NCBI GenBank assembly: GCA_034432135.1
Contig: DAOUCO010000069.1
Coordinates: 1-56,023, forward strand
Direction: 5' to 3'
DNA: 56,023 nucleotides
Origin: Dehalococcoidales bacterium
GTDB lineage: Bacteria; Chloroflexota; Dehalococcoidia; Dehalococcoidales; RBG-16-60-22
In this document: positions 32,664 to 52,997 of the stretch, piece by piece
Numbering within the stretch: the stretch's first letter is position 1
Layout of the letters: the number at the start of each line of letters is the position of its first letter
Notes under the pieces: generated by a model
The model's database searches: none
The model's input: the letters and a program-made list of their open reading frames with translations, nothing else
What the model was told of the DNA's origin: nothing
Program-made: the position numbers and the translations under genes

Positions 32664-32672
32664 TTTTATACT

Positions 32673-34183: not shown

Positions 34184-34227
34184 TGCCCTTGTCATTAACA
34201 ATGATGTAAGGTAGAATTTGAAAGTCC

Positions 34228-34267
34228 GGAGGGGTGGCCGAGCAGACTATGGCGACGGTCTTGAAAT
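34228..34267 (+). repeat. 40-nt copy of the 5' half of tRNA-Ser(UGA), nt 1 to the anticodon loop; att-like direct repeat
   Basis: GGAGGGGTGGCCGAGCaGACTATGGCGACGGTCTTGAAA matches 50536-50575 at 39/40. Similarity starts exactly at tRNA nt 1 and ends in the anticodon loop. Confidence 0.8.
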
Positions 34268-34385
34268 CTGTAAGTCGTTATGTTGATAGGTGATTTTGAA
34301 GCTGAAATAGTATCATCAAATCCAGACGGTCAGGCGTATTTCGTGTGTAAAATGCCGACCAGTGATGTCCTATAAAATTTGTTCC

Positions 34386-34405
34386 GTTAGCAAAATGTTA
34401 GCAAA
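34386..34405 (+). repeat. Tandem GTTAGCAAA 9-mers (a third copy at 34548-34556); candidate recombinase arm-type sites
   Basis: GTTAGCAAAatGTTAGCAAA here versus GTTAGCAAAtgGTTAGCAAA at 50475-50494. Confidence 0.5.
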
Positions 34406-34615
34406 AAATATGTTATAACTGTCTTAGTTTTTTCTACGTATCAACTTTAAACATTTTGGACAAAGGTTATCTGTCTAGTAAAAGCAACCAGATTTTAGCC
34501 TTATTCAACGTCCCATGGCCACATAGACAATAACATTTTAATAGTGGGTTAGCAAATAATCCTGCATTTTCAAAGATGATGAGACTATAATCCGAGGCAG
34601 ACGGAATGATATACT

Positions 34616-36112
34616 ATGTCAGGTGATTGGAAGATGATTAATATTCCTCGAACAATGAGCACGCAGCATCCGGATAATGCTAAAATGCCATCCTTTGTTC
34701 ATGGTAGTGTAATAGGTGGTGAAGACGAAATCGTGGAAGCATATTTAGCATTTTCACAACTTGGATGTCAGGAGCAGATGTGGGATTTTGAGGGGAAAAA
34801 AGCCCTACCATGGGTAGTTTCTGAGCTCCTGACAAAAGACCCTGATTTTTTCAGGAAACATCAGTTGGGCAAAGAAATTTTCCTTACTTTTAGAATTCCT
34901 AATCCTGAGATAGAAAAAGTAGAGGCTAAAATGGTGCCTGAAGTATTAGAGAGTATTCCTCGTTGTTATGATACGGCTCAGTCCATATACGGAAAAAACC
35001 ACCCACCCGTTTTCGAGGTGATCCTACCGATGACCAGCTCTTCAGAACAGTTGAATCGAGTATATTACTACTACCGCGATTTCGTCATCAAGAAAAAAGA
35101 CCTCACACTTTTTCCTGATGATAGTGTTTCGATTAGCCAATGGCTTGGGGATTATAAACCGGAAAAAATCAACGTGATTCCATTATTTGAAGATTTGCCC
35201 TCGATGTTGAATGCCGACCGTATCGTTGCCAGCTACCTGAAAGATAAAAAAGTAGAATATCAACGAGTATTTCTGGCACGTTCAGATCCGGCGTTGAATT
35301 ATGGAGCTCTAGCAGCCGTACTATTACTTAATGTTTCTCTCCAACGCCTATACAAACTTGAAAGGACAATCGGTATTCCTATTTACCCGATTCTGGGAGT
35401 GGGCTCTCCGCCTTTTAGGGGAAACTGTAAGCCCTCCAATGTAAAAAGCATGATCCGGGGCTACCGGAGTTGTCAGACATTTACCATCCAGTCAGCTTTT
35501 AAATATGATTGGCCATCAGATGTTGTTTCTGCTGCAATCACTGAGATTAATTCAACTCCCCGGGGTAATCCTTTACCGGTTAATGAGGAGAAATCAAATT
35601 CTGTTATTAAAAAGACGATATCTGCCTATCAAGAGCAGGTTCCTGAAATAGCATCTTTAGTAAATCAATTGACGTCTTTCCTTCCTCAGCGTCGCCTTCG
35701 GAAGCTTCATATTGGGCTTTTTGGCTATTCTCGAAATGTTGGTAATATCCATTTGCCGAGAGCTATCCCCTTTTGTGCCAGTTTGTATTCAATTGGGCTC
35801 CCTCCGGAATTATTGGGATTATACTCTTTGAACAAAGAAGACCTTGAGATCATCAAGGAAGTCTACCCCAGTCCCTATTTCGAAGAAGATTTCAGGGATG
35901 CTCTAGCCTTTTATAATCCTAAAGCTCTTTCTCTCTTAATCCCAAAAATGAGGAAGCAAATCGAAAAGACGCTGAGAGTTGTAGGATTTCAGACAAATTT
36001 AGAGCACGAAGACATAACATCTCAAATCATCAAATGCCTACAGAATAACCAAACCGACCATCTTCCTGAACTGGTTCTTGAAGCTGCTCAAATCAGGAGA
36101 TTCCTTGGGTAG
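34616..36112 (+). CDS. ppcA: Archaeal-type phosphoenolpyruvate carboxylase
   Basis: The IPRTMSTQHPDNA N-terminus is characteristic of PpcA, and the length is ~490-498 aa. The gene is visibly more AT-rich than its neighbours. The start may be the ATG at 34634. Confidence 0.85.
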   Translation: MSGDWKMINIPRTMSTQHPDNAKMPSFVHGSVIGGEDEIVEAYLAFSQLGCQEQMWDFEGKKALPWVVSELLTKDPDFFRKHQLGKEIFLTFRIPNPEIEKVEAKMVPEVLESIPRCYDTAQSIYGKNHPPVFEVILPMTSSSEQLNRVYYYYRDFVIKKKDLTLFPDDSVSISQWLGDYKPEKINVIPLFEDLPSMLNADRIVASYLKDKKVEYQRVFLARSDPALNYGALAAVLLLNVSLQRLYKLERTIGIPIYPILGVGSPPFRGNCKPSNVKSMIRGYRSCQTFTIQSAFKYDWPSDVVSAAITEINSTPRGNPLPVNEEKSNSVIKKTISAYQEQVPEIASLVNQLTSFLPQRRLRKLHIGLFGYSRNVGNIHLPRAIPFCASLYSIGLPPELLGLYSLNKEDLEIIKEVYPSPYFEEDFRDALAFYNPKALSLLIPKMRKQIEKTLRVVGFQTNLEHEDITSQIIKCLQNNQTDHLPELVLEAAQIRRFLG

Positions 36113-36235
36113 ACTCAGGGAAAACGAAGTACAAAATTGTTAAATTATAGCCATCATGGAAATTCATGCCCTTGGTTGGCAGTTGGTTGACAATATTGCC
36201 TTCGTTACAGTATCATACAAGAAATTGAATATTTA

Positions 36236-36320
36236 CTAGGGGAGCTGAAAGGCTGAGAGTCCTGAAAGGGACAACCCTCATTACCTGATCTCGATAATGC
36301 GAGCGTAGGGAAGTGAGAGA
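36236..36320 (+). promoter_or_regulatory. TPP (THI-box) riboswitch
   Basis: GGGGAGC...GCTGAGA...ACCCTCATTACCTGATCTCGATAATGCGAGCGTAGGGAA matches the THI element core. A TTGACA-N18-TATCAT promoter lies at 36187-36216. Confidence 0.85.
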
Positions 36321-36325
36321 TGTTA

Positions 36326-36365
36326 AACCAGAAGGCTAATTATATTTCAGCTTCTGGTTTTTTAT
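36326..36365 (+). terminator. Riboswitch expression-platform terminator
   Basis: AACCAGAAG...CTTCTGGTT stem followed by a T-run, upstream of thi4. Confidence 0.7.
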
Positions 36366-36470
36366 TTGGCCTTACTTATTTCAGACTAGCTATTGCCCGG
36401 GAGTCATCAGGAAAACTATGATCGATAATAATTAAAAATAATATTTATTAATCACAAGGAGGTATCTCAA

Positions 36471-37244
36471 TTGGATGAAATAATCATTTCTAAAGCTATC
36501 GTTGAAGACTATACTAGAGAACTTCTCGATTCCATGGAGGTAGATGTGGCTATAGTCGGTGCCGGTCCTTCAGGCTTAGCCGCCGGTTACTATCTTGCCA
36601 AAAAGGGAATAAAAAACGCCATTTATGAAAGAAAATTAAGTGTTGGGGGAGGAATGTGGGGCGGGGGTATGATGTTTAACCGGATCGTTGTCCAGCCCGA
36701 GGCGAAGGAAATCCTGGATGAGTTCGGTATTGCAGCTAAAGAATATCAGAAAGGTTATTATGTTGCCGACTCGATAGAAGCTGTTTCTGCCCTTTGTTAT
36801 CGGACGGTAAAAGCCGGTACTCGTATTTTTAATCTGATAACGGCCGAAGATGTCATGATTAGAGAGGATGACAAGGTCACCGGTTTGGTATTGAACTGGA
36901 GCGCAGTTTCTTTAGCCAACTTGCATGTTGATCCACTGACTATCCGGTCAAAGCTAGTAATAGATGCTACTGGACACGAAGCCCAAATATGTAACCTAGT
37001 TGCCCGCAAAACAGGTCGAAAATTAGCCACCACCACAGGGGGAGTCATGGGGGAAAAACCGATGTGGGCTGAGATAGCGGAAAAGGAAACCGTCGCCTAT
37101 ACCAGAGAAGTATATCCCGGCCTAATAGGGGCAGGTATGGTGGTCAATGCTGTTTTTGGCCTGCCGCGCATGGGACCTATTTTCGGTGGTATGCTTTTAT
37201 CCGGTAAGAAAGCTGCTGAACTTGCCGCCAATTTGCTGAAATAA
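36471..37244 (+). CDS. thi4: Thiazole synthase Thi4 (archaeal/eukaryotic type, non-Cys active site)
   Basis: FAD/NAD motif [21 protein letters not shown] and DATGHEA. TTG start with AAGGAGG RBS. Confidence 0.85.
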
Positions 37245-37267
37245 GATTCACTTTGTAGCAAAACCTC

Positions 37268-38509
37268 TTACCCTTCCATTGGAGTCATGGTGAGGAGTTT
37301 CTTGACGATCTTGGGATATTTAGCGATGAAGAGCAGCTCATCTTCAACCAGGGGTTTATGCCCCTGCACATTAGCATACCGTACCAGCTCCAGAATTTCA
37401 TTCGCTTCTTCGCGATTAGAAAATGTTACCGCCATTTTGCCCATAAGATGGGTGAAGCCAGAAATGCCGCTATACTGCCCGGCGATGATTTCTCTTCCTG
37501 TCTCAACCATGATTGGCTCGCCCCTGCCCAATTCTCCAAAACCGTAGAGTTCGTAATTTTCAGGGTCTTTCAGGACGCCATCGGCGTGAATGCCTGAGGA
37601 ATGAGCAAAGGCGTTCGCTCCGACGCCGGGCTGGTTGATGGGAATTGGGACGCCAAAAGCATATTCAGCGAACCTGGCAATTTTGAAGGATTTGGATAGT
37701 ATTATTCTATTTCCCAGATAGTATTTTTCTCCGAAACCCTTTGATTTCGTAACAGCGAGCACCGTGGCGATAAAATCAGCGTTACCGGCTCTTTCGCCAA
37801 TACCGTTAACGGTAGTATTAATATAGACGTCCTGTCCACCGTCAATAGCGCCTTTCGCCCCGGCGAGAGAATTGGCTACAGCCATACCAAGGTCGCCGTG
37901 GCAATGAATCTCGATAGGCAGGCCGACCTTCTCCGCAAGCGTTCTGGCCGCCTCATAAATGGTAAACGGATTATCATAACCCAAAGTATCGCAATATCTC
38001 AGCCTGTCCGCACCGTGTTCTTTAGCCGCTTGTCCGAACTTTATAAGATACTCAATGTCAGTCCTAGAAGCATCTTCTGCATTCACACCAACTGTCTCGG
38101 CGCCAAATGACTTGGCGGCATCAACAGCGTCAGTCATATCTTTGATGATATCTTCAGGCTTTTTCCTGCCCTGAAATTTACCTTCAATCATCTGACGAGA
38201 AGTGGAGATGGACAGGTTCAGGTGCTTAATACCCGGCACCAGTTTGAAGGTAATCTCTACATCCTGAACGATAGCCCGTATCCAGCCTCCCAGTCTTATT
38301 GGATTCAGTACTCCCATTTCGGCGAGCTCAAGGTTGGCATTCAGGTAGTGCGTCTCGTGGTGGGTGGTAGGGAAACCAAACTCGGACTGGAAAACGCCCA
38401 TCTCGTTGAGGTAGATATTAAGCACGGTCTTTTCAAGCTTGGATAGACCCAGCTTCGCGGTCTGCACCCCATCCCGGTTGGTAACATCAATAAAATAAAT
38501 CCTGGGCAT
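37268..38509 (-). CDS. HMGL-like aldolase of the 2-isopropylmalate/homocitrate/citramalate/Re-citrate synthase family
   Basis: DVTNRDGVQT (variant of TLRDGEQ), HCHGDLGMAVANS and TVNGIGERAGNA. The AAGGAGA RBS favours the ATG at 38509. Confidence 0.75.
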   Translation of the reverse strand: MPRIYFIDVTNRDGVQTAKLGLSKLEKTVLNIYLNEMGVFQSEFGFPTTHHETHYLNANLELAEMGVLNPIRLGGWIRAIVQDVEITFKLVPGIKHLNLSISTSRQMIEGKFQGRKKPEDIIKDMTDAVDAAKSFGAETVGVNAEDASRTDIEYLIKFGQAAKEHGADRLRYCDTLGYDNPFTIYEAARTLAEKVGLPIEIHCHGDLGMAVANSLAGAKGAIDGGQDVYINTTVNGIGERAGNADFIATVLAVTKSKGFGEKYYLGNRIILSKSFKIARFAEYAFGVPIPINQPGVGANAFAHSSGIHADGVLKDPENYELYGFGELGRGEPIMVETGREIIAGQYSGISGFTHLMGKMAVTFSNREEANEILELVRYANVQGHKPLVEDELLFIAKYPKIVKKLLTMTPMEG

Positions 38510-38586
38510 GATGGCTATCTCCTTGAAACGATTACTTTGTAATCCGAAGCGCAAATAGGTTGAGCGCTTGGTTCTTACCCTTTGAA

Positions 38587-39891
38587 TTAAGTACAGTCCC
38601 TGCAGGCGGAATAGATGTTATTAAATAGCCTCTCGAGTTTGTCCGTCGGCGTGGAGGCGAAGGCAATCCGCAGCAAATTCTTTCCGCTGTAACAAATCAC
38701 GCCGGTACTATACCTGTCCAATAACATCTCCCAGACCTTCTCTGCTTCCAGCCTATTCAATTTGAGACACATGAAATAACCGGAATTAAACGGCAGACTT
38801 TCAAAATACTCTTCATATTCCGGGTGAGATCCAAGGATTTCCTTGACCCTCAAATACCGCTCCCTTATCTTCTCTCTATTCCTCTCCTTTTCTTTCTGGT
38901 ACGCTGCCGACTTCAATGCACTCAAAAAGAGCGACTGCGACAGATGGGAGGCGTTGGAAATATTCCCCCTGACAGCCCCCGCTGTCTTTTCTTCTAGGGT
39001 TTTGTATAGCTCTTTACTGCCATTTTTGATGCCATAGGTGATAAATCCCACGCGCAAACCCCAGGCATACTCTTCTTTGGTAATGCCGTCCAGTTTTATA
39101 GCCAGCAGGTTCTCGTGCAGGTCAGACAGTTGCGAGAACAGCGATTCAGGGAAGACGTTTTCTTCAAAGACGAGCCCGAAATAAGAATCGTCCAGGATAA
39201 CAACCAGTTTGTTGCCAGCTTCGGCAGCCTCTTTCAGAGCATCTACAATTTCACCGGCTACCTCTCTGGAAGGCGTGTAGCCGGATGGGTTATTGGGGAA
39301 ATTTAAAAGCACGATTTTCTTCCCGGCGTGACCTGCGTTGACCGTTTGCCTGAAAGAATCAATATCAAATACCCTATCTTTAAATAGATTGAAGAATCTT
39401 AGTTCCGCGCCGTAGGCACTGGTAAATACCAGGTCATAGTTTTCCCAGTAAAGGTCAGCAACAATGATGTTATCGGCTTCCTCGACAAACAGGTAACCCA
39501 CTATACTCAGCCCATTGGTAACGCCGCAGGTAACCACCGGCAGACTGATTTCCTTCGTTCCAAGAGAAGGATTCTTTATCCTTATTAGTTCCTGCCACTT
39601 ATCTCGCAACGGCTTGATCCCCTCACTCGGCGCATAAGGGAAGACGTCTTTGCTATCAAGGCCGACGCGTTCAGCGAGGCTGGGCAGCACCATGGGTTTA
39701 CCATCATCTTCGTAAGCAGTGCCTATAGTAGCGTTTATTTCCTTATCTCTGGCGGCCATTCCCTGCGCCAGAATTCCCTTCCTGGGGAAATAAATGGCTT
39801 TCCCCTTCTGGGATAACAGCTCATACACGGTTTTGCCGTTGGCTTTTATAATGCGATTAAGCTCTTCTGCCTGTGTATTAAGTTCTGCCAA
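38587..39891 (-). CDS. Class I/II PLP-dependent aminotransferase
   Basis: NFPNNPSGYTP motif and overall aminotransferase layout, 434 aa. Confidence 0.8.
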   Translation of the reverse strand: MAELNTQAEELNRIIKANGKTVYELLSQKGKAIYFPRKGILAQGMAARDKEINATIGTAYEDDGKPMVLPSLAERVGLDSKDVFPYAPSEGIKPLRDKWQELIRIKNPSLGTKEISLPVVTCGVTNGLSIVGYLFVEEADNIIVADLYWENYDLVFTSAYGAELRFFNLFKDRVFDIDSFRQTVNAGHAGKKIVLLNFPNNPSGYTPSREVAGEIVDALKEAAEAGNKLVVILDDSYFGLVFEENVFPESLFSQLSDLHENLLAIKLDGITKEEYAWGLRVGFITYGIKNGSKELYKTLEEKTAGAVRGNISNASHLSQSLFLSALKSAAYQKEKERNREKIRERYLRVKEILGSHPEYEEYFESLPFNSGYFMCLKLNRLEAEKVWEMLLDRYSTGVICYSGKNLLRIAFASTPTDKLERLFNNIYSACRDCT

Positions 39892-40004
39892 AGGTAAATC
39901 CTCCTATTGGGCGAAGCAGCCCTTCTCAATGATACCGGCTCCAACATCGGGGGTAGCTCAACCTGTGTTACACTGATAGGATATCATGTAAGGCATCACT
40001 ACTG

Positions 40005-40631
40005 TCATTTATCTTTATCCGCTTCACCGTTGTAGGCCCGTTTGGGCGTTACCCCTTTAGCTATGGCAGCTGCCAGGACAGCCTTGGTGATGTCGCCAGC
40101 AATAAAGGGAATCACTCCCATTGTCAATAGGCCTGCAAATGTGGCCGGGCTCCCTTTCATAAAATTAAGCCAGAGCCCAAGCCAGATGATACCCGGTACG
40201 TAGATAAGAACGAAGTTGGCGAAGAGCATCAGGCCCAGCATGCTGAAAAAGCTCCTTGCCCGGATGAATCTGTCAGTGAAATAGCCCAGGAAAAGGGCAG
40301 CCAGAATAAACCCAAAGATGTAGCCTCCGGTGGCACCCAGGCCGCTGGCCCAGCCGGAAAACCAGGGGATCCCCGCAAAGCCAAGCATGGCGTAGATAGC
40401 CATGCTGACGCCGCCCCACCATTTCCCCAACAGCACTCCGGCAAGGAGCACGGCGAAGGTCTGCCCAGTCACCGGCACCGGGCTCCACGGTAGCGCAATC
40501 CTAGCCTGCGCCAGGAGACCGGTAAGGCAAGCCATGCCAATAGCCAGCGCCAGCTTTTTAGGTATGCTTAATTCGTACCTCCACCGGAAGATGTTGTACC
40601 TTGTCTGGTCGATTCTCGCAGCTATTTCCAT
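40005..40631 (-). CDS. bioY: Biotin transporter BioY
   Basis: About 5-6 TM segments with the PVPVTGQTFAVLLAG motif typical of BioY. The GAGGTGG RBS favours the ATG at 40631. Confidence 0.85.
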   Translation of the reverse strand: MEIAARIDQTRYNIFRWRYELSIPKKLALAIGMACLTGLLAQARIALPWSPVPVTGQTFAVLLAGVLLGKWWGGVSMAIYAMLGFAGIPWFSGWASGLGATGGYIFGFILAALFLGYFTDRFIRARSFFSMLGLMLFANFVLIYVPGIIWLGLWLNFMKGSPATFAGLLTMGVIPFIAGDITKAVLAAAIAKGVTPKRAYNGEADKDK

Positions 40632-40662
40632 GATTACCACCTCATTTACTTAAATTAATATG

Positions 40663-40953
40663 TCAGCTTTTTACATCGCATCCCAGCGCCAGCAAAAGGT
40701 CGCCCACGGCATGGTCACGCTCTAATTGGTGGCGCATGGGCAATTCGGGATGAATTGTATACAAGTTACACCTGCCTTCCTTGCGCCGGGCAATATAACC
40801 GGCTGCCTCCAGTTCAGCTATGATTTTCTGGACACCTCTCTGGGTAAGCCCCACCTCGCGGGATATTACTTCCATCGTACTTTTCGGGTGTTTGGCAACA
40901 TAAACAAACACCCGGCCGTGGTTAGAGAGGAAAGTCCACTGTCCCTTTTCCAA
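40663..40953 (-). CDS. Small winged-helix HTH regulator (paralogue of 2465-2797), immediately upstream of bioY
   Basis: 96 aa with STMEVISREVGLTQRGVQKIIAELEAAGYIARRKEGRCNLY. It shares the C-terminal AVGDLLLALG motif with the 2465 ORF (AIGDLLETLG). Confidence 0.7.
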   Translation of the reverse strand: MEKGQWTFLSNHGRVFVYVAKHPKSTMEVISREVGLTQRGVQKIIAELEAAGYIARRKEGRCNLYTIHPELPMRHQLERDHAVGDLLLALGCDVKS

Positions 40954-41163
40954 TCAGGTCCTCCCCGGCAACACGCTTTGACATGAAGATAGCACTTGGT
41001 ATATAATTATGAACAGTAATACGCATATTGTGGTTCGTATATATGATAGCATAAGCTCAACAGGAGCGTCAATTACAAATAAGTCCGAAGGCCACCACAC
41101 ATTAAACCCGAGCGAGCTCACATTAGTAACTATTTTTACATAGAAAGGAAGATTTGAATCCAA

Positions 41164-42891
41164 ATGGGTATTTTCATAACGGATACCACTTTGCGGGATG
41201 CACATCAATCGCTGATAGCCACCAGGATGCGTACCAAAGATATGCTCCCCATCGCTGCTGAGCTTGATAAGGCGGGTTTCTTCTCTCTTGAGGTTTGGGG
41301 GGGCGCCACCTTTGATACCTGCATCCGGTTTTTAAACGAAGACCCTTGGGAGCGGCTGCGGAGCCTGCGGGAAAAAGTCAGGAATACCCGCCTGCAGATG
41401 CTTCTCCGCGGCCAGAACCTTGTTGGCTACCGCCACTATGCTGACGATGTGTTACGGGAGTTCATCCGTCTTTCGGTTAAAAACGGTATAGATGTCTTCC
41501 GCATCTTCGACGCCCTGAATGACATCAGGAATATGGAACTGGCGATAAAGGTAGCCAAGGAATTCAAAGCTCATGTCCAGGGAACCATCTGCTATACCAC
41601 CTCGCCGGTGCACACCACGGAAAAATTCGCCGCTATGGCTGAGCAGCTCGAGCGTCTGGGATGTGATTCCATCTGCATCAAGGATATGGCCGGGCTGATA
41701 TCGCCAGCGGCGGCGAGTGAACTGGTGAAAGCCATCAAGGGCCGGATAAGAGTTCCTCTAAACCTGCACTCGCATTGCTCCAGCGGTATGGCTCCCCTGA
41801 GCTACTATGCCGCTGCCCTTGTCGGCGTTGACATTGTGGATACCGCCTTTTCCGCTTTTGGCTGGGGTACTTCCCAGCCGCCTACGGAAAGCATCGTAGC
41901 CGCCTTCAGAGACACCCCCTATGATACCGGCCTGGAACTCGAGTTACTTTATGAAATCGGTGAATACTTCGCCACCTTGAGCGGAAAATACCGGATGCTC
42001 TTTACCGCCGAGACCACCCGCCCCAGCGTCAATGTCCTGCTGCACCAGATACCCGGCGGTATGCTCTCCAACCTTGTAAGTCAACTTCGGGAGCAGAATG
42101 CCCTAGACAAATACAGCCAGGTCCTGGAAGAAGTGCCTAGAGTACGGGCTGACCTAGGTTATCCGCCGCTAGTAACCCCGACGAGCCAGATTGTAGGTAT
42201 CCAGGCAGTGCTGAACGTCATTTCTGGAGGGCGCTACAAGCAGGTTACCCAGGAGGTGAAAAATTATCTCCTGGGTCATTACGGGCGGCCGCCCGGTGAG
42301 GTGAACGAAGATTTGAGGAGACAGGTGATAGGGGAAGAACGCCCTGTCGATGTCCGCCCCGCTGACCTCATCAAGCCGGAACTGGACAGGCTGCGAGAAG
42401 AAGGGCATAAGCTGGGCATCATCCACCGGGAGGAGGACCTGATAACTTACGCCCTTTACCCCCAAGTAGCGGTGAAATTCCTGCGCGGCGAACTTAAAGA
42501 AGAAGCCATGCCTTCGCCTGTGGAAGCGGCCGCAAAAAGTCCGGCGGCAGTCGACTTACCCCTGGAGTTCAGCGTGGACGTTGACGGCGAGGTGTTCAAT
42601 GTCCGGGTATCCTCGGTACTAGGTAAGACCGTAGAAGTGGAAAAGTCAAAGAAACCGAAGGAATTACCCGCTGGCGCCGTTGTTTCCCCGATGCAGGGGA
42701 TGATACTCGCTGTCAAAGTAAAGGCAGGTGATAAGGTTAAAGCCGGCGATGCGCTCATGGTCATCGAGGCGATGAAGATGCAGAACCAAGTTACCGCCCC
42801 GCATAACGGAACTGTAAAAGAAATACTAACTTTCCAGGGAGAGGTGGTCAATGCCGGTGATGTGCTATTGATTGTTGAGCCGAAGGGATAG
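41164..42891 (+). CDS. pycB: Pyruvate carboxylase subunit B / oxaloacetate decarboxylase alpha-type carboxyltransferase with biotinyl domain
   Basis: ITDTTLRDAHQS carboxyltransferase N-terminus and a C-terminal biotinylation motif, EAMKMQ. Confidence 0.85.
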   Translation: MGIFITDTTLRDAHQSLIATRMRTKDMLPIAAELDKAGFFSLEVWGGATFDTCIRFLNEDPWERLRSLREKVRNTRLQMLLRGQNLVGYRHYADDVLREFIRLSVKNGIDVFRIFDALNDIRNMELAIKVAKEFKAHVQGTICYTTSPVHTTEKFAAMAEQLERLGCDSICIKDMAGLISPAAASELVKAIKGRIRVPLNLHSHCSSGMAPLSYYAAALVGVDIVDTAFSAFGWGTSQPPTESIVAAFRDTPYDTGLELELLYEIGEYFATLSGKYRMLFTAETTRPSVNVLLHQIPGGMLSNLVSQLREQNALDKYSQVLEEVPRVRADLGYPPLVTPTSQIVGIQAVLNVISGGRYKQVTQEVKNYLLGHYGRPPGEVNEDLRRQVIGEERPVDVRPADLIKPELDRLREEGHKLGIIHREEDLITYALYPQVAVKFLRGELKEEAMPSPVEAAAKSPAAVDLPLEFSVDVDGEVFNVRVSSVLGKTVEVEKSKKPKELPAGAVVSPMQGMILAVKVKAGDKVKAGDALMVIEAMKMQNQVTAPHNGTVKEILTFQGEVVNAGDVLLIVEPKG

Positions 42892-42919
42892 TACGATGTT
42901 GACGACGAGGAGTAAAGCG

Positions 42920-43099
42920 ATGAAGGAAAATGAAAAATCCTACAGGAATCCTACCTTGATTAGGTATCACCCCAGTTGCCGACTATGTAGCTATGCCGGT
43001 TTTTCCAATGTCTGTAATTTCTCTCGAACGGGCAAGTGTGCTTACAACATATCTTCAGAAGATACGGGCGCAAACGAAGAGGTAGAACGGGATGATTAA
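42920..43099 (+). CDS. Candidate 59-aa Cys-rich small protein between pycB and the biotin carboxylase
   Basis: GAGGAG RBS 7 nt upstream of the ATG. CxxC-x8-C-x7-C pattern ([22 protein letters not shown]). Its stop overlaps the start of the next gene (ATGATTAA). Confidence 0.35.
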
Positions 43100-44564
43100 A
43101 AAGATACTAGTGGCCAATCGCAGTGAAATAGCCATACGCATTATGCGGGCCTGCCGCGAGCTCGGGATAACCTCGGTGGCAGTCTATTCTGAAGCGGATA
43201 AAGACGCCCTGTTTGCTAAATACGCTGATGAAGCTTATTTCATCGGTGCGGCGCCGGCAACCGAGAGCTATCTGAATATTAAAAAAATTATTGAAGTAAC
43301 TAAAGAGTGCGGTGCCGAAGCCGTCCACCCCGGCTACGGCTTCCTGGCAGAAAACCCCAGCTTCGCCTACGCCTGTGAAAAGGAGGGTATCAAGTTTATC
43401 GGTCCCTCAAGCAAGGTGCTCGAACTGATGGGCAATAAGATAGAAGCCAGGAAGGAGATGAAAAAGGCCGGGGTCCCGGTGGTGCCCGGCACCGATGAGT
43501 GCGTAACCGACTTCGGCTTGGCCAAAGACATCGCCAGTAATATTGGCTATCCGGTAATCTGCAAACCGTCTGGCGGGGGCGGGGGCATTGGCATGAAGGT
43601 CGTTACTGACGAAGGGGAACTGCGCGAGGCGCTTGACTCCTCCCGGGCGATCGCCGCCTCAACATTCGGATTGCCCGATGTCTACATCGAAAAGTACATA
43701 TCCCATCCCCGACACATAGAGTTCCAGATACTGGCGGACGCGCATGGCAACGCCATCCACCTTGGCGAGCGAGAGTGTTCCATCCAGCGGCGTCACCAGA
43801 AGCTCATCGAGGAGTCTCCATCCCCGGCGCTTACCCCGCAGCTTCGCGCTGAGATGGGAGCCGCGGCCGTCAGGGCTGCCAGGTGGGTCAACTACGAAGG
43901 AGCTGGTACAATAGAGTTTCTTTATTCTGACAGGAAGTTCTACTTCCTGGAAGCAAATACCCGGGTCCAGGTGGAGCACCCGGTGACTGAGATGGTAACC
44001 GGGATTGATATTGTCAAGGAGCAGATAAGAATTGCTGCCGGACTGCCGCTCGGTATCAAGCAGGATGAGGTTCGCCCTCGCGGCTGGGCGATCGAATGCC
44101 GGATCAATGCCGAAGACCCTCTGAACAATTTTGCCCCTTGCCCCGGCAAGCTCCGGGGTTACCGCTCGCCCGGCGGTATCGGCATCCGGGTCGATAGCGG
44201 CGTTTATACACGATACACCATACCATCCATTTACGACCCTATGATATCAAAACTCATCGCCTGGGGCAGAGATAGAGATGAGGCCGTCGCCAGGATGCGG
44301 CGAGCACTCTATGAATACATTATCTCGGGGGTCAAGACCAACATCCCGTTCCATAAAGCGGTCATGGAAAATCCCCGCTTTGTAAAGGGAGAACTCAGCA
44401 CTCATTTTATCGAAAGCGAGACAACCCTCCTAGAAGATATGAAAAGGATTATCGAGAGGGAGAAACCCCTGGAAGAAAGGTTATCCCAGATATTCGACGA
44501 AAAGAAAAAGATAGCCGCTATTGCTGCTGTAACGGCTGTTACCCAGCTTTCCCAAAAATCGTGA
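43092..44564 (+). CDS. accC: Biotin carboxylase (PycA/AccC type), copy 1
   Basis: [20 protein letters not shown]-grasp GGGGIGM and [14 protein letters not shown]. 490 aa with a C-terminal extension. Confidence 0.85.
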
Positions 44565-44602
44565 ATATCCATTCCTGAAAAAGGCAGACTGGAAAGACGA
44601 AG

Positions 44603-45982
44603 ATGACAGATAGTCCCCCCTTTAAAAAGATATTGATCGCCAACCGTGGTGAGATTGCCGTGCGCATCATCCGGGCCTGCCGTGAGATGGGAATTGACTC
44701 CGTCGCTGTGTACAGTGATATAGACCGCGACGCGCTGCATGTCCGCTGCGCAGACGAAGCCTATCCCATCGGGAGCTCATCTCCCGGAGAAAGCTACCTG
44801 AACATTGAGAAAATCCTGGCCGTAGCCCAGCAGGCCAAAGCGGAAGCGATACACCCCGGCTACGGCTTCCTTTCCGAGAACCCGCGTTTCGCCGAGGCAT
44901 GCCTTGAACGAGGCTTTGTCTTCATCGGGCCTGGGGCAGAGGCGCTCCGTGCCGTGGGCAACAAGGTCTCGGCTCGTCAAACGGCGCAGGCTTGCGGTGT
45001 GCCGGTTGTCCCGGGTTCTATCGCCAGCCTGAACGGCCACGGTGAAGCAGCCGAGATTGCTAAAACAGTGGGCTACCCTGTCTTGTTGAAGGCAGCCGCC
45101 GGCGGCGGGGGTAAAGGGATGCGCATCGCACGTGACGAAAAGGAGCTCAGGCTGGCCATCGAACTGGCCGCCAAAGAAGCAAAGTCTGCCTTTGGCGACC
45201 CCACTCTCTACGTCGAAAAACAGGTAAACTCGGCACGCCACGTCGAAGTCCAGTTGCTTGCCGATAGCTTTGGCAATATCGTTCACCTCGGGGAGCGGGA
45301 CTGCACTATCCAGCGCCGTTTTCAGAAGGTCATCGAGGAATCGCCGTCACCGGCAGTGGATGATGAACTGCGAGGCCTTTTAACCGGTGCGGCGATTAAG
45401 GTAGCGCAGGCCGTCGGTTACCGCAACGCCGGCACCGTGGAATTTCTCGTCGATGGTAGGGATTTCTATTTCATCGAGGTAAACGCCAGGCTACAGGTAG
45501 AACACCCGGTGACGGAAATGGTTACGGGAATTGATATCGTCAAAGAGCAGATACACATTGCCGCCGGAAAGCCACTGAGTCTCCGGCAGAGTAACGTCAC
45601 CATGAGGGGCGCGGCTCTGCAGTGCCGTATCTATGCCGAGAATCCGGCTTATAACTTTATGCCCTCGCCGGGTAAAATACAGACGATACGGGAGCCCGCC
45701 ATTCCTCATATTCGTATAGACAGCGGTGTCATGGATGGCAGTCTTATCCCCATGGAGTATGACGGGCTGCTTGCCAAGCTGGTTGCCTGGGGCAGTACGC
45801 GCACCGAGGCGATTAACAGGATGAAGCAGGCTCTCGATGAATACGTGATTACGGGGGTCCATACCACCGTCCCTTTTAAGAGGTACGTCATGGATACCGA
45901 ACTGTTTCGCTCTGGTGAGTTTGATACGGGCTTTATCAGCCATATACTACAGGACTGGAAGGACTCCCGAAGTAAAGTTTGA
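44603..45982 (+). CDS. accC: Biotin carboxylase, copy 2
   Basis: ILIANRGEIAVRIIRAC, GGGGKGM and [14 protein letters not shown]. 459 aa. Confidence 0.85.
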   Translation: MTDSPPFKKILIANRGEIAVRIIRACREMGIDSVAVYSDIDRDALHVRCADEAYPIGSSSPGESYLNIEKILAVAQQAKAEAIHPGYGFLSENPRFAEACLERGFVFIGPGAEALRAVGNKVSARQTAQACGVPVVPGSIASLNGHGEAAEIAKTVGYPVLLKAAAGGGGKGMRIARDEKELRLAIELAAKEAKSAFGDPTLYVEKQVNSARHVEVQLLADSFGNIVHLGERDCTIQRRFQKVIEESPSPAVDDELRGLLTGAAIKVAQAVGYRNAGTVEFLVDGRDFYFIEVNARLQVEHPVTEMVTGIDIVKEQIHIAAGKPLSLRQSNVTMRGAALQCRIYAENPAYNFMPSPGKIQTIREPAIPHIRIDSGVMDGSLIPMEYDGLLAKLVAWGSTRTEAINRMKQALDEYVITGVHTTVPFKRYVMDTELFRSGEFDTGFISHILQDWKDSRSKV

Positions 45983-46078
45983 GGAAGGAATTAGTCCCGA
46001 AGGGAAAAACAAGTAATTATAAACCACCACCAGAGCCTGAGAAAAAGGCTAGGAATGGCTCTCGGGAGGTAGTGGAAT

Positions 46079-46339
46079 ATGATAAGAGTTGTAATAGAAG
46101 CGTGTTCAAAAGCTGACTTGCCTTTATCAAAAAGCTTTGGCGAGGCTTTGGATAGATTAGGTGTTCAAAGTATACTGAGAGTAGCTTCAACAAGCAAGGA
46201 TTCCACCCAGCGCAATGAAACTGTCAAGGAACATGAAGGTAATTATACTTATTCCAGCCTCATAAACATCCAGAAAAGAATCAAGCAATACCTAAGCATG
46301 GCAAATGAGACAGATAGTCAGGAAGCAGGTCGCCTATGA
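46079..46339 (+). CDS. Hypothetical small protein
   Basis: 86-aa ORF whose stop overlaps the next start (ATGA). No motif recognised. Confidence 0.35.
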   Translation: MIRVVIEACSKADLPLSKSFGEALDRLGVQSILRVASTSKDSTQRNETVKEHEGNYTYSSLINIQKRIKQYLSMANETDSQEAGRL

Positions 46340-46749
46340 CTGATAAAATATTTGCCACGGCCATCAACTGCATGGATGGCAGGGTTCAAACACCTGTAAT
46401 CGAATGGTTGAAAAGGCGATACGGAGCCGACTATGTAGATATGATCACCGAGCCCGGCCCAGAGCGATTGTTGGTAAATAGTAAAGACCGGACAGGCATT
46501 GAATCAATACGCAGGCGTCTTGAAATATCCGTAAACCGCCACAATTCAAACCTTGTTGCGGTTGTTGGACATCATGACTGTGCCGGAAATCCGGCAGGCA
46601 AAGAAACTCAACTGGAGCAGATACTCAATGCAATTAAAACTGTAGAGTCATGGAATTTTAAGGTTCGGGTTATCGGATTACGGGTTAATGAGAGCTGGGA
46701 AGTGCAAGAAGTATACTGCGGAAATAGGGAGGAGGAAGAGAAACCATGA
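46336..46749 (+). CDS. Mini beta-carbonic-anhydrase-like protein (putative)
   Basis: CMDGR (CxDxR) at residues 12-16 and VVGHHDCAG (HxxC) at 79-82, arranged as in the beta-CA zinc site. Only 137 aa. Confidence 0.5.
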   Translation: MTDKIFATAINCMDGRVQTPVIEWLKRRYGADYVDMITEPGPERLLVNSKDRTGIESIRRRLEISVNRHNSNLVAVVGHHDCAGNPAGKETQLEQILNAIKTVESWNFKVRVIGLRVNESWEVQEVYCGNREEEEKP

Positions 46750-47633
46750 AGAAGGTTATACTGGATAGCAATTTACAAAGCCTGAAGCTTGTTAAGAAGG
46801 GGAAGGTAAGGGACATTTATGAACTGGGAGAGCACCATCTTATTATCGTCGCCACCGACCGGATTTCCGCCTTTGATGTAGTCCTCCCCAATGGCATACC
46901 CCAAAAGGGCAAAATCCTTACTGCGCTCTCCCTTTTCTGGTTCGGTTTTACCAAAGACGTCATCTCAAACCATGTTCTGGTCAAGGAAACGCCCCATTTA
47001 CCTAGGGAAGAAAGAGAGATTGTGGAAGGTCGGTCAATGCTGGTCAAGAAGGCAAAGCCTCTCCCGGTGGAGTGTATTGTGCGGGGTTACCTTTCGGGCT
47101 CAGCTTGGAAAGAATATCAGAGCCGGGGGACGGTGTGTGGGATAAGGCTTCCGCCAGGGCTTCAAGAGTCGGCGAAACTGGCAGAGCCGATATTTACCCC
47201 CTCAACCAAAGCTGAAACCGGCCATGATGTTAATATAACCTTTAAAGAGCTCCAAAATCTGGTGGGGGCAGAACTTGCCGCAAAACTCCAGCAGATTTCA
47301 CTCGCACTATATTCAAAGACATCAGAGTATGCTGAAGAGAGAGGCATAATCATCGCCGATACCAAATTCGAGTTCGGATTATATAAGGGCGAAGTCATCC
47401 TGATAGATGAGCTCCTCACTCCAGATTCATCAAGGTTCTGGTCGAAAGAAGCCTATGAACCGGGAAAGCCGCAGCCGAGTTTTGATAAACAATATGTGAG
47501 GGATTACCTGGAATCAATTAAGTGGGATAAGAATCCTCCGGCGCCGGAACTGCCTCCTGAAGTAATCGAGGAAACCAGCAAGAAATACTTAGAAGCATAT
47601 AAGCGGCTTTTGGGCGTAAACGCAGATCCTTAA
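46746..47633 (+). CDS. purC: Phosphoribosylaminoimidazole-succinocarboxamide (SAICAR) synthase
   Basis: GKVRDIY...ATDRISAFD...IIADTKFEFG motifs. Confidence 0.9.
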   Translation: MKKVILDSNLQSLKLVKKGKVRDIYELGEHHLIIVATDRISAFDVVLPNGIPQKGKILTALSLFWFGFTKDVISNHVLVKETPHLPREEREIVEGRSMLVKKAKPLPVECIVRGYLSGSAWKEYQSRGTVCGIRLPPGLQESAKLAEPIFTPSTKAETGHDVNITFKELQNLVGAELAAKLQQISLALYSKTSEYAEERGIIIADTKFEFGLYKGEVILIDELLTPDSSRFWSKEAYEPGKPQPSFDKQYVRDYLESIKWDKNPPAPELPPEVIEETSKKYLEAYKRLLGVNADP

Positions 47634-47654
47634 GACCGGGAGAGGGGGTAGATT

Positions 47655-48641
47655 TTGGATTTCTCCCTGGTTGTAGTATTGTTATTGGTTTTAGCCGCCG
47701 AGTTCGTTAATGGTTTTACGGATGCCCCCAACGCTATCGCCACGGTGGTATCGACCCGCGTCCTTTCTCCTCTGCGTGCGGTGGTTATGGCAGCGCTGTT
47801 AAACGTTGCCGGGGTGCTGGCTACCGGCACGGCCGTGGCTTTCACCATCGGCAAAGGCATCGTCGAACCGGAGGTAATCGGGCTATCCACGGTTGGAGCA
47901 GCTATGTTAAGCATAGTTGTCTGGAGCCTTGTAGCCTGGCGATGGGGTATTCCCACCAGTGAGAGTCATGCGCTGGTGGCTGGGCTGACAGGGGCGGGGT
48001 TAGCCGCCGCTGGCCCTTCCGTGCTGCTCTGGGAAGGATGGAGGAAGGTCTTCATGGGTCTGGGGTTCTCTACTTTCCTCGGTTTTCTTGGCGGTCTCAT
48101 AGTGATGGTCGCCGTATACTGGTTGTTCCGCCGGGTTAGACGCACCTTCGTCAACTCACTTTTTGGGCGTCTTCAAATACTCTCCGCCGCCCTCATGGCT
48201 TTCAGCCACGGCAGTAACGATGGTCAAAAATTCATGGGGGTTTTCGCCCTGGCACTCTTACTCGGCGGGGTGCTGCCACAGTTCCAGGTATCCCTGTGGG
48301 TTGTCCTCCTCTGCGGGGCGGTAATGGGGCTGGGGACCATGTTTGGCGGCTGGCGCATCATCAAGACTATGGGGTTCCGTGTCACCAAGCTTGAACCGGT
48401 CCACGGCTTCGCCGCCGAAAGCTCAGCCAGCCTTGTCATCCTTATGGCTTCTTTTCTGGGCATACCTTTGAGCACCACACATACCATTAATACCGCTATC
48501 ATGGGAGTTGGAGCCACCCGCCGGCTTTCGGCAGTCAGGTGGGGCGTTACCAGGCAGATTGTTACGGCATGGCTCCTTACTTTTCCTGTCTGCATTGGAC
48601 TGGGTTTTGTATTTGCATTGTTATTAAAATACATAATATAA
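47655..48641 (+). CDS. Inorganic phosphate transporter, PiT family
   Basis: Duplicated GxNDxxN-type motifs (FVNGFTDAPNAIA and SHGSNDGQK) and multiple TM segments. Confidence 0.85.
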   Translation: MDFSLVVVLLLVLAAEFVNGFTDAPNAIATVVSTRVLSPLRAVVMAALLNVAGVLATGTAVAFTIGKGIVEPEVIGLSTVGAAMLSIVVWSLVAWRWGIPTSESHALVAGLTGAGLAAAGPSVLLWEGWRKVFMGLGFSTFLGFLGGLIVMVAVYWLFRRVRRTFVNSLFGRLQILSAALMAFSHGSNDGQKFMGVFALALLLGGVLPQFQVSLWVVLLCGAVMGLGTMFGGWRIIKTMGFRVTKLEPVHGFAAESSASLVILMASFLGIPLSTTHTINTAIMGVGATRRLSAVRWGVTRQIVTAWLLTFPVCIGLGFVFALLLKYII

Positions 48642-48711
48642 AGGAAATAAGACACCATTAACTAAAAGTTAAGAGGGAATTCCTGCCAATAAAGTTGCTG
48701 GGTGCCAAGCA

Positions 48712-49728
48712 ATGATAGTCGAAATGAGAATCGGTACAACCCAAGAAGAGATAGACAGCGTCGTGCAGAGGGCTAAGTCGTTAGGGCTGGGTACGCAGTT
48801 AAACGTCGGCACTGACAAAACGGTGATCGCTATACTGGGAAGTAACACGGGCCAGTTGTCTACAGACGTTTTCGCTGTGCTCCCCGGGGTAGAACGTGTA
48901 ACCAGAATCATGAAACCCTACAAGCTCGCCTCACGGGAATTCAAGAACGAAGACAGCGTCGTTTCCATAAGCGGGATTGGAGTCGGTAGCAAACGTGTTG
49001 TGGTCATAGCGGGCCCGTGTGCCGTGGAGAGCGAAGAACAACTTATGGAAGCAGCTAGAGTTGTAAAAGAATGCGGAGCCTGCATGCTGCGCGGAGGCGC
49101 CTTCAAACCACGTACTTCACCTTTTAGCTTTCAGGGGATGGGGAAGGCCGGCCTAGAATTGCTGGTAAAAGCCAGAGAGAGGTTCGATATACCTGTGGTC
49201 ACCGAAGTGGTAGACCCGGGCGATGTTAGCCTAGTATCTAAGTATGCCGATGTCCTACAAGTAGGAGCGCGGAATATGCAAAACTTCCCCCTGCTAACCA
49301 ATCTTGGGAGAAGTAAACATCCTGTCGTTCTAAAACGCGGGTTTGCGTGTAGCGTTACCGAATGGCTTACCGCAGCCGATTACCTGCTTGCCGAAGGGAA
49401 TAACCAGGTTATACTCTGTGAGAGGGGAATCAGAACCTTTGAGGATACCACCCGGTTTTCTCTGGATATTTCTTCCATACCGGTAATCAAGAGGTTCAGT
49501 CATTTACCAGTTATTGTTGACCCTAGCCATGCGGCTGGCCACTATTCGCTGGTGCCAGCGATAGCCAAGGGCGCTGTGGCCGCCGGTGCCGATGGACTTC
49601 TCATTGAAGTTCATCCTAACCCCAAGGAGGCTCTGGTGGATGGCCTCCAATCCCTGACACCGTCAGACTTTGCTAGATTGATGGCAGAACTAAGGGCAAT
49701 TACTGAGTCCATAGGGAGATACGTTTAG
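48712..49728 (+). CDS. aroF: 3-deoxy-7-phosphoheptulonate (DAHP) synthase, type I-beta with N-terminal regulatory domain (Thermotoga type)
   Basis: 338 aa. KPYKLASREF, AGPCAVES, LRGGAFKPRTSPFSFQG and VDPSHA. Confidence 0.9.
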   Translation: MIVEMRIGTTQEEIDSVVQRAKSLGLGTQLNVGTDKTVIAILGSNTGQLSTDVFAVLPGVERVTRIMKPYKLASREFKNEDSVVSISGIGVGSKRVVVIAGPCAVESEEQLMEAARVVKECGACMLRGGAFKPRTSPFSFQGMGKAGLELLVKARERFDIPVVTEVVDPGDVSLVSKYADVLQVGARNMQNFPLLTNLGRSKHPVVLKRGFACSVTEWLTAADYLLAEGNNQVILCERGIRTFEDTTRFSLDISSIPVIKRFSHLPVIVDPSHAAGHYSLVPAIAKGAVAAGADGLLIEVHPNPKEALVDGLQSLTPSDFARLMAELRAITESIGRYV

Positions 49729-49942
49729 TCACGGAAATATGATAAAATAAACTCGCTGACAACACTCTGGAGATTATTCAAGACTTCTGTTGGTGTACCA
49801 CCCCAAGCTCTGCAGCCTGGTAATATTTGTACTTCTGCTATGTATTTAAATTTTGAAGCTGTATAGAGTGATGTTATCCACACTTGTCGTGCTCAATTTT
49901 CAAACTTTTTCAGGGTAACGGTCTGGGAATCCGTCACACTGT

Positions 49943-50098
49943 TTACGCACGAATCCGCTTGTTTAGGTTATCAATCGGACTAGCTTTAACGTGAGCTTGG
50001 TAAGAATCTTCAAACCCTAGACTCTGACAGTAGCGTTTGGTCATTTCAAGCGAATGATGGCCGAGCAAATACTGCCACTCAAACGGACTCCCACCATC
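49943..50098 (-). pseudogene. C-terminal fragment of a tyrosine recombinase
   Basis: DGGSPFEWQYLLGHHSLEMTKRY...SPIDNL resembles the extreme C-terminus (LGH...T..Y) of Xer/integrase proteins. Upstream catalytic motifs are missing. Confidence 0.5.
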
Positions 50099-50111
50099 TG
50101 CTACACTAGTC

Positions 50112-50479
50112 ATACAGGCACATAGAGAAGCAGCCGAAAAACATGCTGCTCTGCTTGGCATTACACTAACCGATGATTCCCTAGTGTTCTGCCATTATGA
50201 TGGCTCGCCATTGCATCCGAATACGATGACGCGGGCTTGGCATAACCTGGCAATACGCGCTGGTGTGAAGGTAATCCGCCTTCATGATGCCCGGCATACA
50301 AATGTAAGCCTTATGCTTAAACAAGGCATAACCCAAAGATAGTGCAAGAACGCTTAGGTCATGCTACAATAGCAATGACCCTTGATACATACAGCCATGT
50401 CTCACCCGGACTTCAAGAAGTTGCTGCCAGGAAGTTCGACGACCTCGACTTGCTGAATAAAAAGAAAAGGTGGCGTTAG
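50112..50479 (+). pseudogene. Phage-type integrase pseudogene (N-terminally truncated, frameshifted)
   Basis: LVFCHYDGSPL...IRLHDARHT, then after a frameshift near 50328-50335, PKIVQERLGHATIAMTLDTYSHV. The stop at 50340-50342 interrupts the first frame. Confidence 0.75.
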
Positions 50480-50494
50480 CAAATGGTTAGCAAA
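50475..50494 (+). repeat. Tandem GTTAGCAAA 9-mers between the integrase remnant and tRNA-Ser
   Basis: GTTAGCAAAtgGTTAGCAAA. The same 9-mer occurs three times at 34386-34556. Confidence 0.5.
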
Positions 50495-50535
50495 TTTAGG
50501 TTATGTAAAATCTACTTTACCATATTATGAGACTG

Positions 50536-50626
50536 GGAGGGGTGGCCGAGCGGACTATGGCGACGGTCTTGAAAACCGTTTCTCGATTATATCGGGACGT
50601 GGGTTCGAATCCCACCCCCTCCGCCA
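50536..50626 (+). tRNA. tRNA-Ser (anticodon UGA), encoded CCA
   Basis: 7-bp acceptor stem GGAGGGG/CCCCTCC, anticodon stem-loop ACGGT-CTTGAAA-ACCGT, long variable arm, T-arm GTGGG-TTCGAAT-CCCAC, and discriminator G plus CCA. Confidence 0.95.
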
Positions 50627-51987: not shown

Positions 51988-52016
51988 TTATTTATTAAGC
52001 GAAAGAGAGAAAATAC

Positions 52017-52994: not shown

Positions 52995-52997
52995 ATT

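Follow-up and report, generated by a model that had tools for sequence, protein, structure and literature searches.

Islands bounded by a fragment of a tRNA gene (tDNA) are recorded in the Islander collection, where 3760 of the 3919 islands carry a 3′ tDNA fragment and 159 a 5′ fragment (PMC4383910); the 5′ class is thus known but rare (a 4% minority). Here, a segment related to this minority class is described in a metagenome-assembled genome of a Dehalococcoidales bacterium (GCA_034432135.1, contig DAOUCO010000069.1, positions 1–56,023, forward strand). The whole stretch analysed, 56,023 nt long, is called the window, and coordinates without a label refer to it; loci used for comparison carry labels of the form L210. 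Positions 34228–50626 of the window are probably the fossil of an integrative element in the gene of tRNA-Ser(UGA), entered by tyrosine-integrase recombination.

Like the Islander islands with 5′ fragments, the segment has at its ends an intact tRNA gene and a direct-repeat end fragment, with the cognate 5′ fragment on the same strand and upstream of the gene. Also as in those islands, the tyrosine integrase lies at the tRNA-proximal end and the attachment (att) site is centred on the anticodon. Unlike the Islander class, for which an integrase open reading frame (ORF) is required, the window has a remnant only.

An element with apparently intact att sites but with no integrase, excisionase or replication gene is defined as a cis-mobilizable element, or CIME (PMC5704250), and at the sequence level this is what the segment presents. 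As in the CIMEs derived by decay of integrative and conjugative or integrative and mobilizable elements (those related to ICESt1 in Streptococcus thermophilus), both attL and attR are kept, here with a core of 38/39 and five perfect arm repeats. The differences from the ICESt1-related CIMEs concern the target (the 5′ and not the 3′ end of the gene), the host (an uncultured member of the Dehalococcoidales) and the cargo (central metabolism). Because the five arm repeats are perfect, it is conceivable that a related element could enter at attR and, through accretion, make the block mobile.

The integrases found in relatives resemble the heterobivalent Int proteins of lambda and of Tn916/Tn1549, with arm-binding, SAM-like and catalytic domains, and short direct repeats flank the core. 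Unlike in the lambda and Tn916 systems, the arm consensus is GTTAGCAAA, in pairs with an 11-bp spacing, and arm binding is here a prediction. The Tn916 arm site is presumably similar to GTTAGCAAA (TAGTAAA-like).

In Dehalococcoides, the ssrA islands (vcr-GI and others) resemble the segment in lying at a small-RNA gene and in being bounded by a direct repeat of it, and they often stand in tandem; some lack an integration module and were proposed to be CIMEs (PMC3146451). They depend on the serine recombinase DsiB, target the 3′ end of ssrA (T-loop) with a 20-bp repeat, and carry rdhA genes (PMC3146451). The window differs in all these respects (tyrosine integrase, tRNA-Ser, a 39-nt 5′ repeat, anabolic cargo). 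Its assignment as a Dehalococcoides ssrA island was ruled out, the target being tRNA-Ser and the recombinase remnant of the tyrosine type.

Attachment sites, arm repeats and integrase remnant

The only tRNA gene in the window is tRNA-Ser(tga), called by ARAGORN with agreement of Rfam (Table 1). Nucleotides 1–39 of the gene are repeated once, in the same orientation and 16.3 kb upstream, with 38 of the 39 positions identical. At nucleotide 17, where tRNA-Ser has the first G of the D-loop's conserved GG, the fragment has an A; this mismatch fits the decay of a non-functional copy. Nucleotide 40 differs too, so that the identity is 38/40 over nucleotides 1–40 and 41/44 over 44 nt; the pair 34228–34271 and 50536–50579 is the sole direct-repeat pair of such kind in the window, and none is expected from shuffles. 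The anticodon loop consists of nucleotides 33–39, CTTGAAA (numbered from the sequence), and the identity runs to its last base. Directly beyond it, the five positions of the stem's 3′ strand read ACCGT in tRNA-Ser and TCTGT in the fragment. We did not find a second copy of the 3′ half of tRNA-Ser in the window, and neither ARAGORN nor Rfam calls a tRNA at the fragment. In the intact gene, nucleotides 1–39 and the region upstream would be derived from the element and the remainder from the chromosome; in relatives as well, the region upstream of tRNA-Ser is element-derived.

The 9-mer GTTAGCAAA occurs five times in the window, always on the plus strand, with 0.56 copies expected and none of 100 shuffles reaching five. 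All five copies are still perfect. One tandem pair (P′ arm) starts 119 nt inside the attL fragment and is followed on the same side by a single copy; the other pair (P arm) ends 41 nt before the tRNA. The repeats stand on both sides of the core, with a sequence distinct from that of the core. In comparisons of the P′ region with other loci, similarity was found only through the arm repeats. GTTAGCAAA would be bound as an arm-type site by the N-terminal domain of the integrase.

Between the DAHP synthase gene and the tRNA only debris is present, namely a HicB-like fragment, an Xer-like fragment and the remnant of the island integrase. The N-terminal two thirds of this integrase are deleted, and the rest is damaged by a 1-nt deletion near 50331 (a frameshift) and by a premature stop at 50340–50342. 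Read through these lesions, the remnant matches PF00589 with E = 2.3e-15 (profile positions 92–169), and no intact ORF is left. The stop codon of the integrase sits within the first GTTAGCAAA of the P arm. Pfam scans of all ORFs of the island gave no intact integrase, excisionase, relaxase or replication gene. The HicB-like fragment is probably the relic of another mobile element.

An original prediction for this DNA had pointed to the repeat, to its end in the anticodon loop, to the decayed integrase abutting the tRNA and to the five copies of the 9-mer (a pair just inside each boundary and a further copy at 34548–34556). The positions of the 9-mers are exact, the loop boundary holds to the last base, and the integrase is recognised both by the profile match and by alignment with the C-termini of its relatives. 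The repeat itself stands; the count given for it, 39/40, has to be replaced by 38/39 over nucleotides 1–39, or 38/40 over nucleotides 1–40.

Uninterrupted sites and intact elements in relatives

Related Dehalococcoidia contigs were found by a scan with the Na/Ca exchanger. In two of them (L210 and L211), the order recO, serS/lysS, MFS, tRNA-Ser(tga), Na/Ca exchanger and SBP is collinear with 27.5–34.2 kb and 50.9–55.9 kb of the window. The amino acid identities to the window genes of 27572–34183 and 50917–55859 are 54–88% (67–82% for the longer ones). All the genes of the block are absent from both contigs, and tRNA-Ser(tga) stands directly between the MFS gene and the exchanger; in L211, there is one extra SDR (short-chain dehydrogenase/reductase) gene at the tRNA-Ser site. 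Since L210 and L211 show the site uninterrupted, with the same flanking genes, the block was inserted in the window's lineage.

Across the clade, integration recurs at the 5′ side of tRNA-Ser(UGA). The succession of an integrase, two repeats spaced by 11 bp and the 5′ end of tRNA-Ser(tga) is present in L093, L201, L207, L208, L317–319, L324 and L389 (in L319 and L389 with partial matches to the query integrase). The same geometry occurs in L212, with the integrase as two ORFs, and only a C-terminal scar of the integrase persists in L205 and L210, in L205 with the repeats. At these tRNA-Ser sites of relatives, the repeats are GTTAGCAA(A), GTTAGCTA or TTAGTAGCAA. The integrases of L201, L208 and L093 contain Arm-DNA-bind_4 (PF14657), Phage_int_SAM_3 (PF14659) and Phage_integrase (PF00589), and the integrases of relatives match the structures of Tn1549 and lambda Int by sequence. 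Upstream of the integrase, L201 and L208 have a second recombinase-like gene and zinc-finger proteins. An excisionase-like helix–turn–helix (HTH) gene is found in L208, and an excisionase-like gene with a replication-relaxation-like protein in L093. In the upstream sequence of the tRNA-Ser elements L201, L205, L207, L208, L212 and L317–319 (up to 10 kb), no 5′ fragment of the attL type was found.

A complete analogue with both ends is available at another tRNA. The metagenome contig L351 (6.9 kb) holds a complete element of 6.4 kb, laid out like the window. Its 5′ fragment, 37/38 identical to nucleotides 1–38 of tRNA-Thr(CGT), stops with the final base of the anticodon loop. About 100 nt inside the fragment, the P′ arm has a pair of GTTTGACA with an 11-bp spacing; further on, ORFs resembling a replication gene and an HTH excisionase precede an intact integrase, and the GTTTGACA pair recurs between this integrase and the intact tRNA. 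The arm sequence of L351 differs from that of the window and covaries with the integrase. This architecture supports arm sites on both arms, crossover in the anticodon loop and a 5′ half supplied by the element.

A second short box, TTAGCTTCA, is seen 10–20 nt from the tRNA boundary in, for example, L144, L156, L208, L329, L331 and L351 (at both ends, inverted in the P′ arm of L351), and may be a further protein-binding site. The window is without TTAGCTTCA.

Integration model, cargo and alternatives

In the proposed mechanism, attP would have carried nucleotides 1–39 of the tRNA together with the element's own upstream region, with the P arm placed after the integrase stop and before the tRNA part, and the P′ arm about 120–290 nt away on the other side. 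Strand exchange would take place in the 7-nt anticodon loop, a position of the crossover suggested by the end of the repeat. The chromosomal promoter and 5′ half would be displaced to the left end (attL), and a working tRNA would be rebuilt at attR from the 5′ half of the element and the 3′ half of the chromosome. The mobility genes would have decayed later, with two thirds of the integrase lost, the rest frameshifted and no excisionase or replication gene left. The outcome would be attL and attR around 15 kb of metabolic genes of the Dehalococcoidales type. The island is decayed and CIME-like, and probably fixed. As to the cargo, our best guess is arrival on the element itself or accretion of DNA bounded by att sites, with deletions afterwards. 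The model draws on direct observations (the repeats, the empty site in relatives, the integrase remnant, the intact elements of the same architecture and the shift in composition described below).

The cargo block contains genes for an archaeal-type phosphoenolpyruvate carboxylase (PEPC), Thi4, an HMGL-like synthase, an aminotransferase, BioY, MarR, pycB and two biotin carboxylases, then a purE fragment and genes for carbonic anhydrase, purC, a PHO4 transporter and DAHP synthase. On its left (1–34.2 kb), there are core genes, including ligA, eno, gap, dnaX, recO, serS, lysS and an MFS transporter. On its right occur a small GIY-YIG ORF, a Na/Ca exchanger, a DAP dehydrogenase, an HD protein and an SBP_bac_5 protein. 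In 4-kb windows, the tetranucleotide correlation to the flanks is 0.60–0.79 in the block vs. 0.82–0.88 in most flank windows, with an exception in the flank around 18–24 kb (0.73–0.78). The shift is sharp at both boundaries (Mann–Whitney p = 2e-4), and it is because of this atypical composition that we lean slightly to import or accretion of the cargo. The GC content at third codon positions (GC3) is a mosaic within the block, from 0.36 to 0.66, with PEPC, Thi4, the purE fragment and carbonic anhydrase at 0.36–0.44 and the other cargo genes at 0.51–0.66, within the host range. The purE fragment immediately precedes carbonic anhydrase and purC, has the lowest GC3 in the window save the HD gene, and is probably a truncated gene at an old rearrangement joint.

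DAHP synthase, PEPC and pycB have closest homologues with 89%, 81% and 88% identity, respectively; those for which a name is given bear the label Chloroflexi, Dehalococcoidia or Dehalococcoidales. In relatives, the homologues of the cargo genes lie in quite different neighbourhoods, and only MarR–pycB–pycA are conserved together. The cargo, in an arrangement found nowhere else, is a patchwork in which at least one gene (purE) is broken and which is accompanied by relics of another mobile element. Beside other integrase–tRNA sites, neither the block nor parts of it were found, apart from DAHP synthase near tRNA scars (L108 and L130); there, the gene is in an apparently usual context with an acetyltransferase and is thus not counted as evidence of mobility. 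An archaeal origin of the cargo, to which pattern scans had pointed (few Dehalococcoidia relatives, pycB nearest to methanogens), was dropped after full protein searches gave Dehalococcoidales homologues with 83–89% identity.

The two tandem biotin carboxylase genes (43092–44564 and 44603–45982) follow pycB. The first shares 79% identity with the pycA-like gene beside pycB in L233. The second is only 52–56% identical to the same kind of neighbour elsewhere and is a more distant paralogue.

Several observations weigh against the integration of an imported element as proposed. There is no intact mobility gene in the island, so that integration has to be deduced from scars and relatives, and the cargo is separated from the integrase remnant by HicB-like and Xer-like relics of a second mobile element. 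The intact elements of the family (L351, L201, L208 and L093) carry replication, excisionase and unknown genes, and not metabolic cargo. The cargo is typical of the lineage (81–89% identical to Dehalococcoidales homologues); intact save purE, it may represent the organism's only copies, which fits relocation as well as import. In L210, the spacer between the MFS gene and tRNA-Ser (L210:9624–9853) contains about 60 nt coding for an integrase C-terminus (RFDEAFTTKYNE...); to judge from this scar, the site once held an element that has since been almost wholly deleted, and the history of the "empty" site is a layered one. Finally, a consensus promoter was looked for upstream of the rebuilt tRNA-Ser at the right end without success.

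Part of these observations would also be explained if the att boundaries were genuine but the 15-kb cargo had entered a resident element later, through illegitimate or homologous recombination, a second mobile element or genomic relocation, with subsequent deletion of the backbone. Such a course of events is a serious possibility, although we do not consider it probable. It agrees with the differing chromosomal contexts of the Dehalococcoidales homologues, in which only small modules such as MarR–pycB–pycA are conserved, with a GC3 within the host range in 9 of the 14 cargo genes, and with the lack of metabolic cargo in intact family members; the truncated purE and the HicB-like and Xer-like relics would mark several illegitimate joins. 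However, the tetranucleotide deviation extends along the whole block, which relocation of resident DNA does not predict, and no transposase or insertion-sequence end was seen inside the block. Further, the cargo borders immediately on the P′ arm and on the integrase remnant, and late entry would therefore need at least two precise-looking deletions.

The other alternatives fare worse. The fragment could be a decayed tandem or dispersed duplicate of tRNA-Ser, with the 9-mers regulatory or due to chance; tRNA pseudogenes do occur, and the genes of the block are of the housekeeping type. This is nevertheless very improbable, as the identity breaks off precisely where the anticodon loop ends, which is also the case in L351, the spacing (11 bp) and orientation of the pairs match those of integrase-adjacent pairs in more than 100 genomes, the integrase remnant ends in the first repeat, and the block is absent from L210 and L211.

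The left (attL) junction is the same, base for base, in two other public assemblies (one a per-run Logan contig), with 3–4 mismatches over 13.8–21.5 kb in the attL-side matches, and the second assembly spans the right junction too, with 1 mismatch in 17.3 kb; reproduced in three assemblies, the junction is not an artefact of a single one. A chimera of metagenome assembly through shared tRNA or integrase sequence, conceivable in a metagenome-assembled genome since the strains of such communities share recurrent integrase-to-tRNA-Ser junctions, is hardly credible with a shared stretch of only 39 nt and with an attL segment identical in three assemblies and a right junction matched in the second.

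For the integrated fossil in tRNA-Ser(UGA), most of the original prediction is thus upheld. The footprint of site-specific integration with an anticodon-loop crossover is backed by the empty site, the intact elements of the same geometry and the composition; the block is absent from L210 and L211 with syntenic flanks, and it deviates from its flanks in tetranucleotides. The enclosed genes are metabolic according to their Pfam content, and the decayed mobility genes and att scars agree with an old, fixed island. A rearrangement between two copies of an element, considered there as an alternative, may have occurred but is not needed.

Table 1. Features of the tRNA-Ser(UGA) island and of its borders in the window
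Feature	Position	Strand	Evidence or remark
Orphaned native tRNA-Ser promoter (putative), TTGTCA-17-TAGAAT, 10 nt upstream of the 5′ fragment, now directed into the island	34189..34217	+	Activity presumed
attL core, displaced chromosomal 5′ part of tRNA-Ser(UGA), nt 1–39	34228..34266	+	38/39 to 50536–50574
P′ arm, tandem GTTAGCAAA pair, 11-bp spacing	34386..34405	+
Third GTTAGCAAA on the P′ side, single copy	34548..34556	+
Cargo block	34616..49728	.	Pfam, Rfam
TPP (thiamine pyrophosphate) riboswitch upstream of the Thi4 thiazole synthase gene	36228–36328		RF00059, 69 bits
purE N-terminal fragment, 86-aa ORF, about the N-terminal third of PurE (AIR carboxylase)	46079–46339		Weak, E = 0.0017
HicB/UPF0150-like antitoxin fragment	49725..49883	-	PF21748, E = 1.2e-4, below gathering score
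Candidate C-terminal remnant of a second, Xer-like tyrosine recombinase (LLGHHSLEMTKRY)	49943..50083	-	PF00589, E = 0.051 (weak), profile positions 151–168 of 172
Island integrase remnant, about the last 130 of 390 codons	50088..50479	+	Aligns with intact L201 and L208 integrases
P arm, tandem GTTAGCAAA pair, 11-bp spacing	50475..50494	+
attR, intact tRNA-Ser(UGA)	50536..50626	+	ARAGORN, Rfam

Polarity of insertion and promoter-like sites

Among the metagenome relatives of the L201 integrase (49–97% identity), 15 of 28 face the 5′ end of a tRNA and 13 the 3′ end. The targets faced at the 5′ end are Ser-TGA, Ser-CGA, Arg-TCG, Arg-CCT, Trp and Thr-CGT; those faced at the 3′ end are Glu, Met, Thr, Lys and Arg. 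In a rough neighbor-joining tree of the integrases, to be taken as a sketch only, the 5′ and 3′ states are interleaved. The polarity had been described as unusual in the original prediction, which is correct insofar as the 5′ class is a minority; but the class is a known one, and it is common (about half) in this subfamily of integrases.

L329 and L331 encode integrases with 96.5% identity, and the P arm is common to both up to and including the repeats (L329:1–1500, L331:4000–5400). The adjoining tRNAs differ: in one contig it is tRNA-Arg(CCT), met at its 5′ end, and in the other tRNA-Thr(CGT), met at its 3′ end. At the level of the sequences compared, the switching between tRNA halves by near-identical integrases is directly evidenced by this pair. 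On the integrase strand, both tRNAs read GCGGTTT-NNN-AAACCG. The anticodon stem-loop would thus be close to a DNA palindrome, in which case the polarity would be set by the tRNA half present in attP and not by the enzyme.

The promoter-like site upstream of the 5′ fragment (Table 1) is the top site of this kind in the region, with 10/12 matches. At the uninterrupted site of L211, a native-looking TTGTTA-17-TAAAAT is followed by GTCC and then by the tRNA. Since the window and L211 share this upstream layout, the fragment is considered to be the original chromosomal 5′ end, left with its promoter. The rebuilt tRNA would then be transcribed from DNA of the element. No terminator-like site was found between the orphaned promoter and the PEPC gene, and read-through from the tRNA promoter into PEPC is possible.

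One may speculate further, although we regard the following as unlikely in its entirety. A large subfamily of tyrosine integrases with arm binding may exist in Dehalococcoidia, its tRNA polarity flipping freely owing to crossover in a near-palindromic anticodon stem-loop. Elements of the 5′ type would seize the promoter of a possibly single-copy tRNA and would leave a strong native promoter reading into their own P′ end, which in the window would drive PEPC and Thi4. The element would then be a vehicle for a central-carbon module (PEPC, pycAB, carbonic anhydrase and BioY) between Dehalococcoidales genomes.

The locus offers a precisely bounded case of an uncultured Dehalococcoidales genome gaining or reshuffling 15 kb of central metabolism at a tRNA hotspot. 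The conserved arm-site motif (GTTAGCAAA-like pairs with an 11-bp spacing) and the occurrence of near-identical integrases on either tRNA half may outweigh the island itself in usefulness. Both bear on island-finding software, in which 3′ fragments are often assumed, and on the choice of integrases for genome engineering.

The arm motif in other genomes

Species-representative genomes were scanned for exact matches to GTTAGCAAANNGTTAGCAAA, that is, to the GTTAGCAAA-NN-GTTAGCAAA pair. At least 120 loci were obtained, in Chloroflexota, Bacillota, Actinomycetota and others, including Bacillus, Paenibacillus and Clostridium. The following counts apply to the matches listed. A tRNA is called within 600 bp downstream of the pair at 49 loci; at 44 of these the tRNA faces the repeats with its 3′ end (one, L196, being tRNA-Ser(tga)), and at five (L093, L103, L123, L144 and L156) with its 5′ end. 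The integrase homologue near the pair ends at most 150 bp upstream and on the same strand in 42 cases, with no other arrangement. For eight further pairs, the nearest detectable integrase homologue is more than 150 bp away. In many phyla, such pairs stand next to tRNA genes. The arm sequence covaries with the integrase, and the distribution suggests that the specificity for the arm site is conserved across phyla. A literature search with the 9-mer returned primer sequences only, and the arm motif is not described in the literature searched.

Other features of the window

Within the left flank, two CetZ-like paralogues of the tubulin/FtsZ family occur at 18265–19440 and 22579–23751 (PF00091, PF21011), with about 70% nucleotide identity in parts. 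CetZ has been described as an archaeal family, and a duplicated CetZ-like pair in a Dehalococcoidales bacterium is worth mentioning. Between the two genes, a repetitive ORF of 699 aa (20254–22353, minus strand) has no Pfam match and a strongly negative AT skew. Tandem SDR paralogues (adh_short_C2) are present at 2963–3727 and 3763–4560, about 71–79% identical in nucleotides in parts. Two ORFs of 79 aa consist of a GIY-YIG domain only; one is at about 25974–26213 (for which the sole source is a gene called on the twin contig L400), and the other, at 50664–50903, lies immediately downstream of tRNA-Ser.

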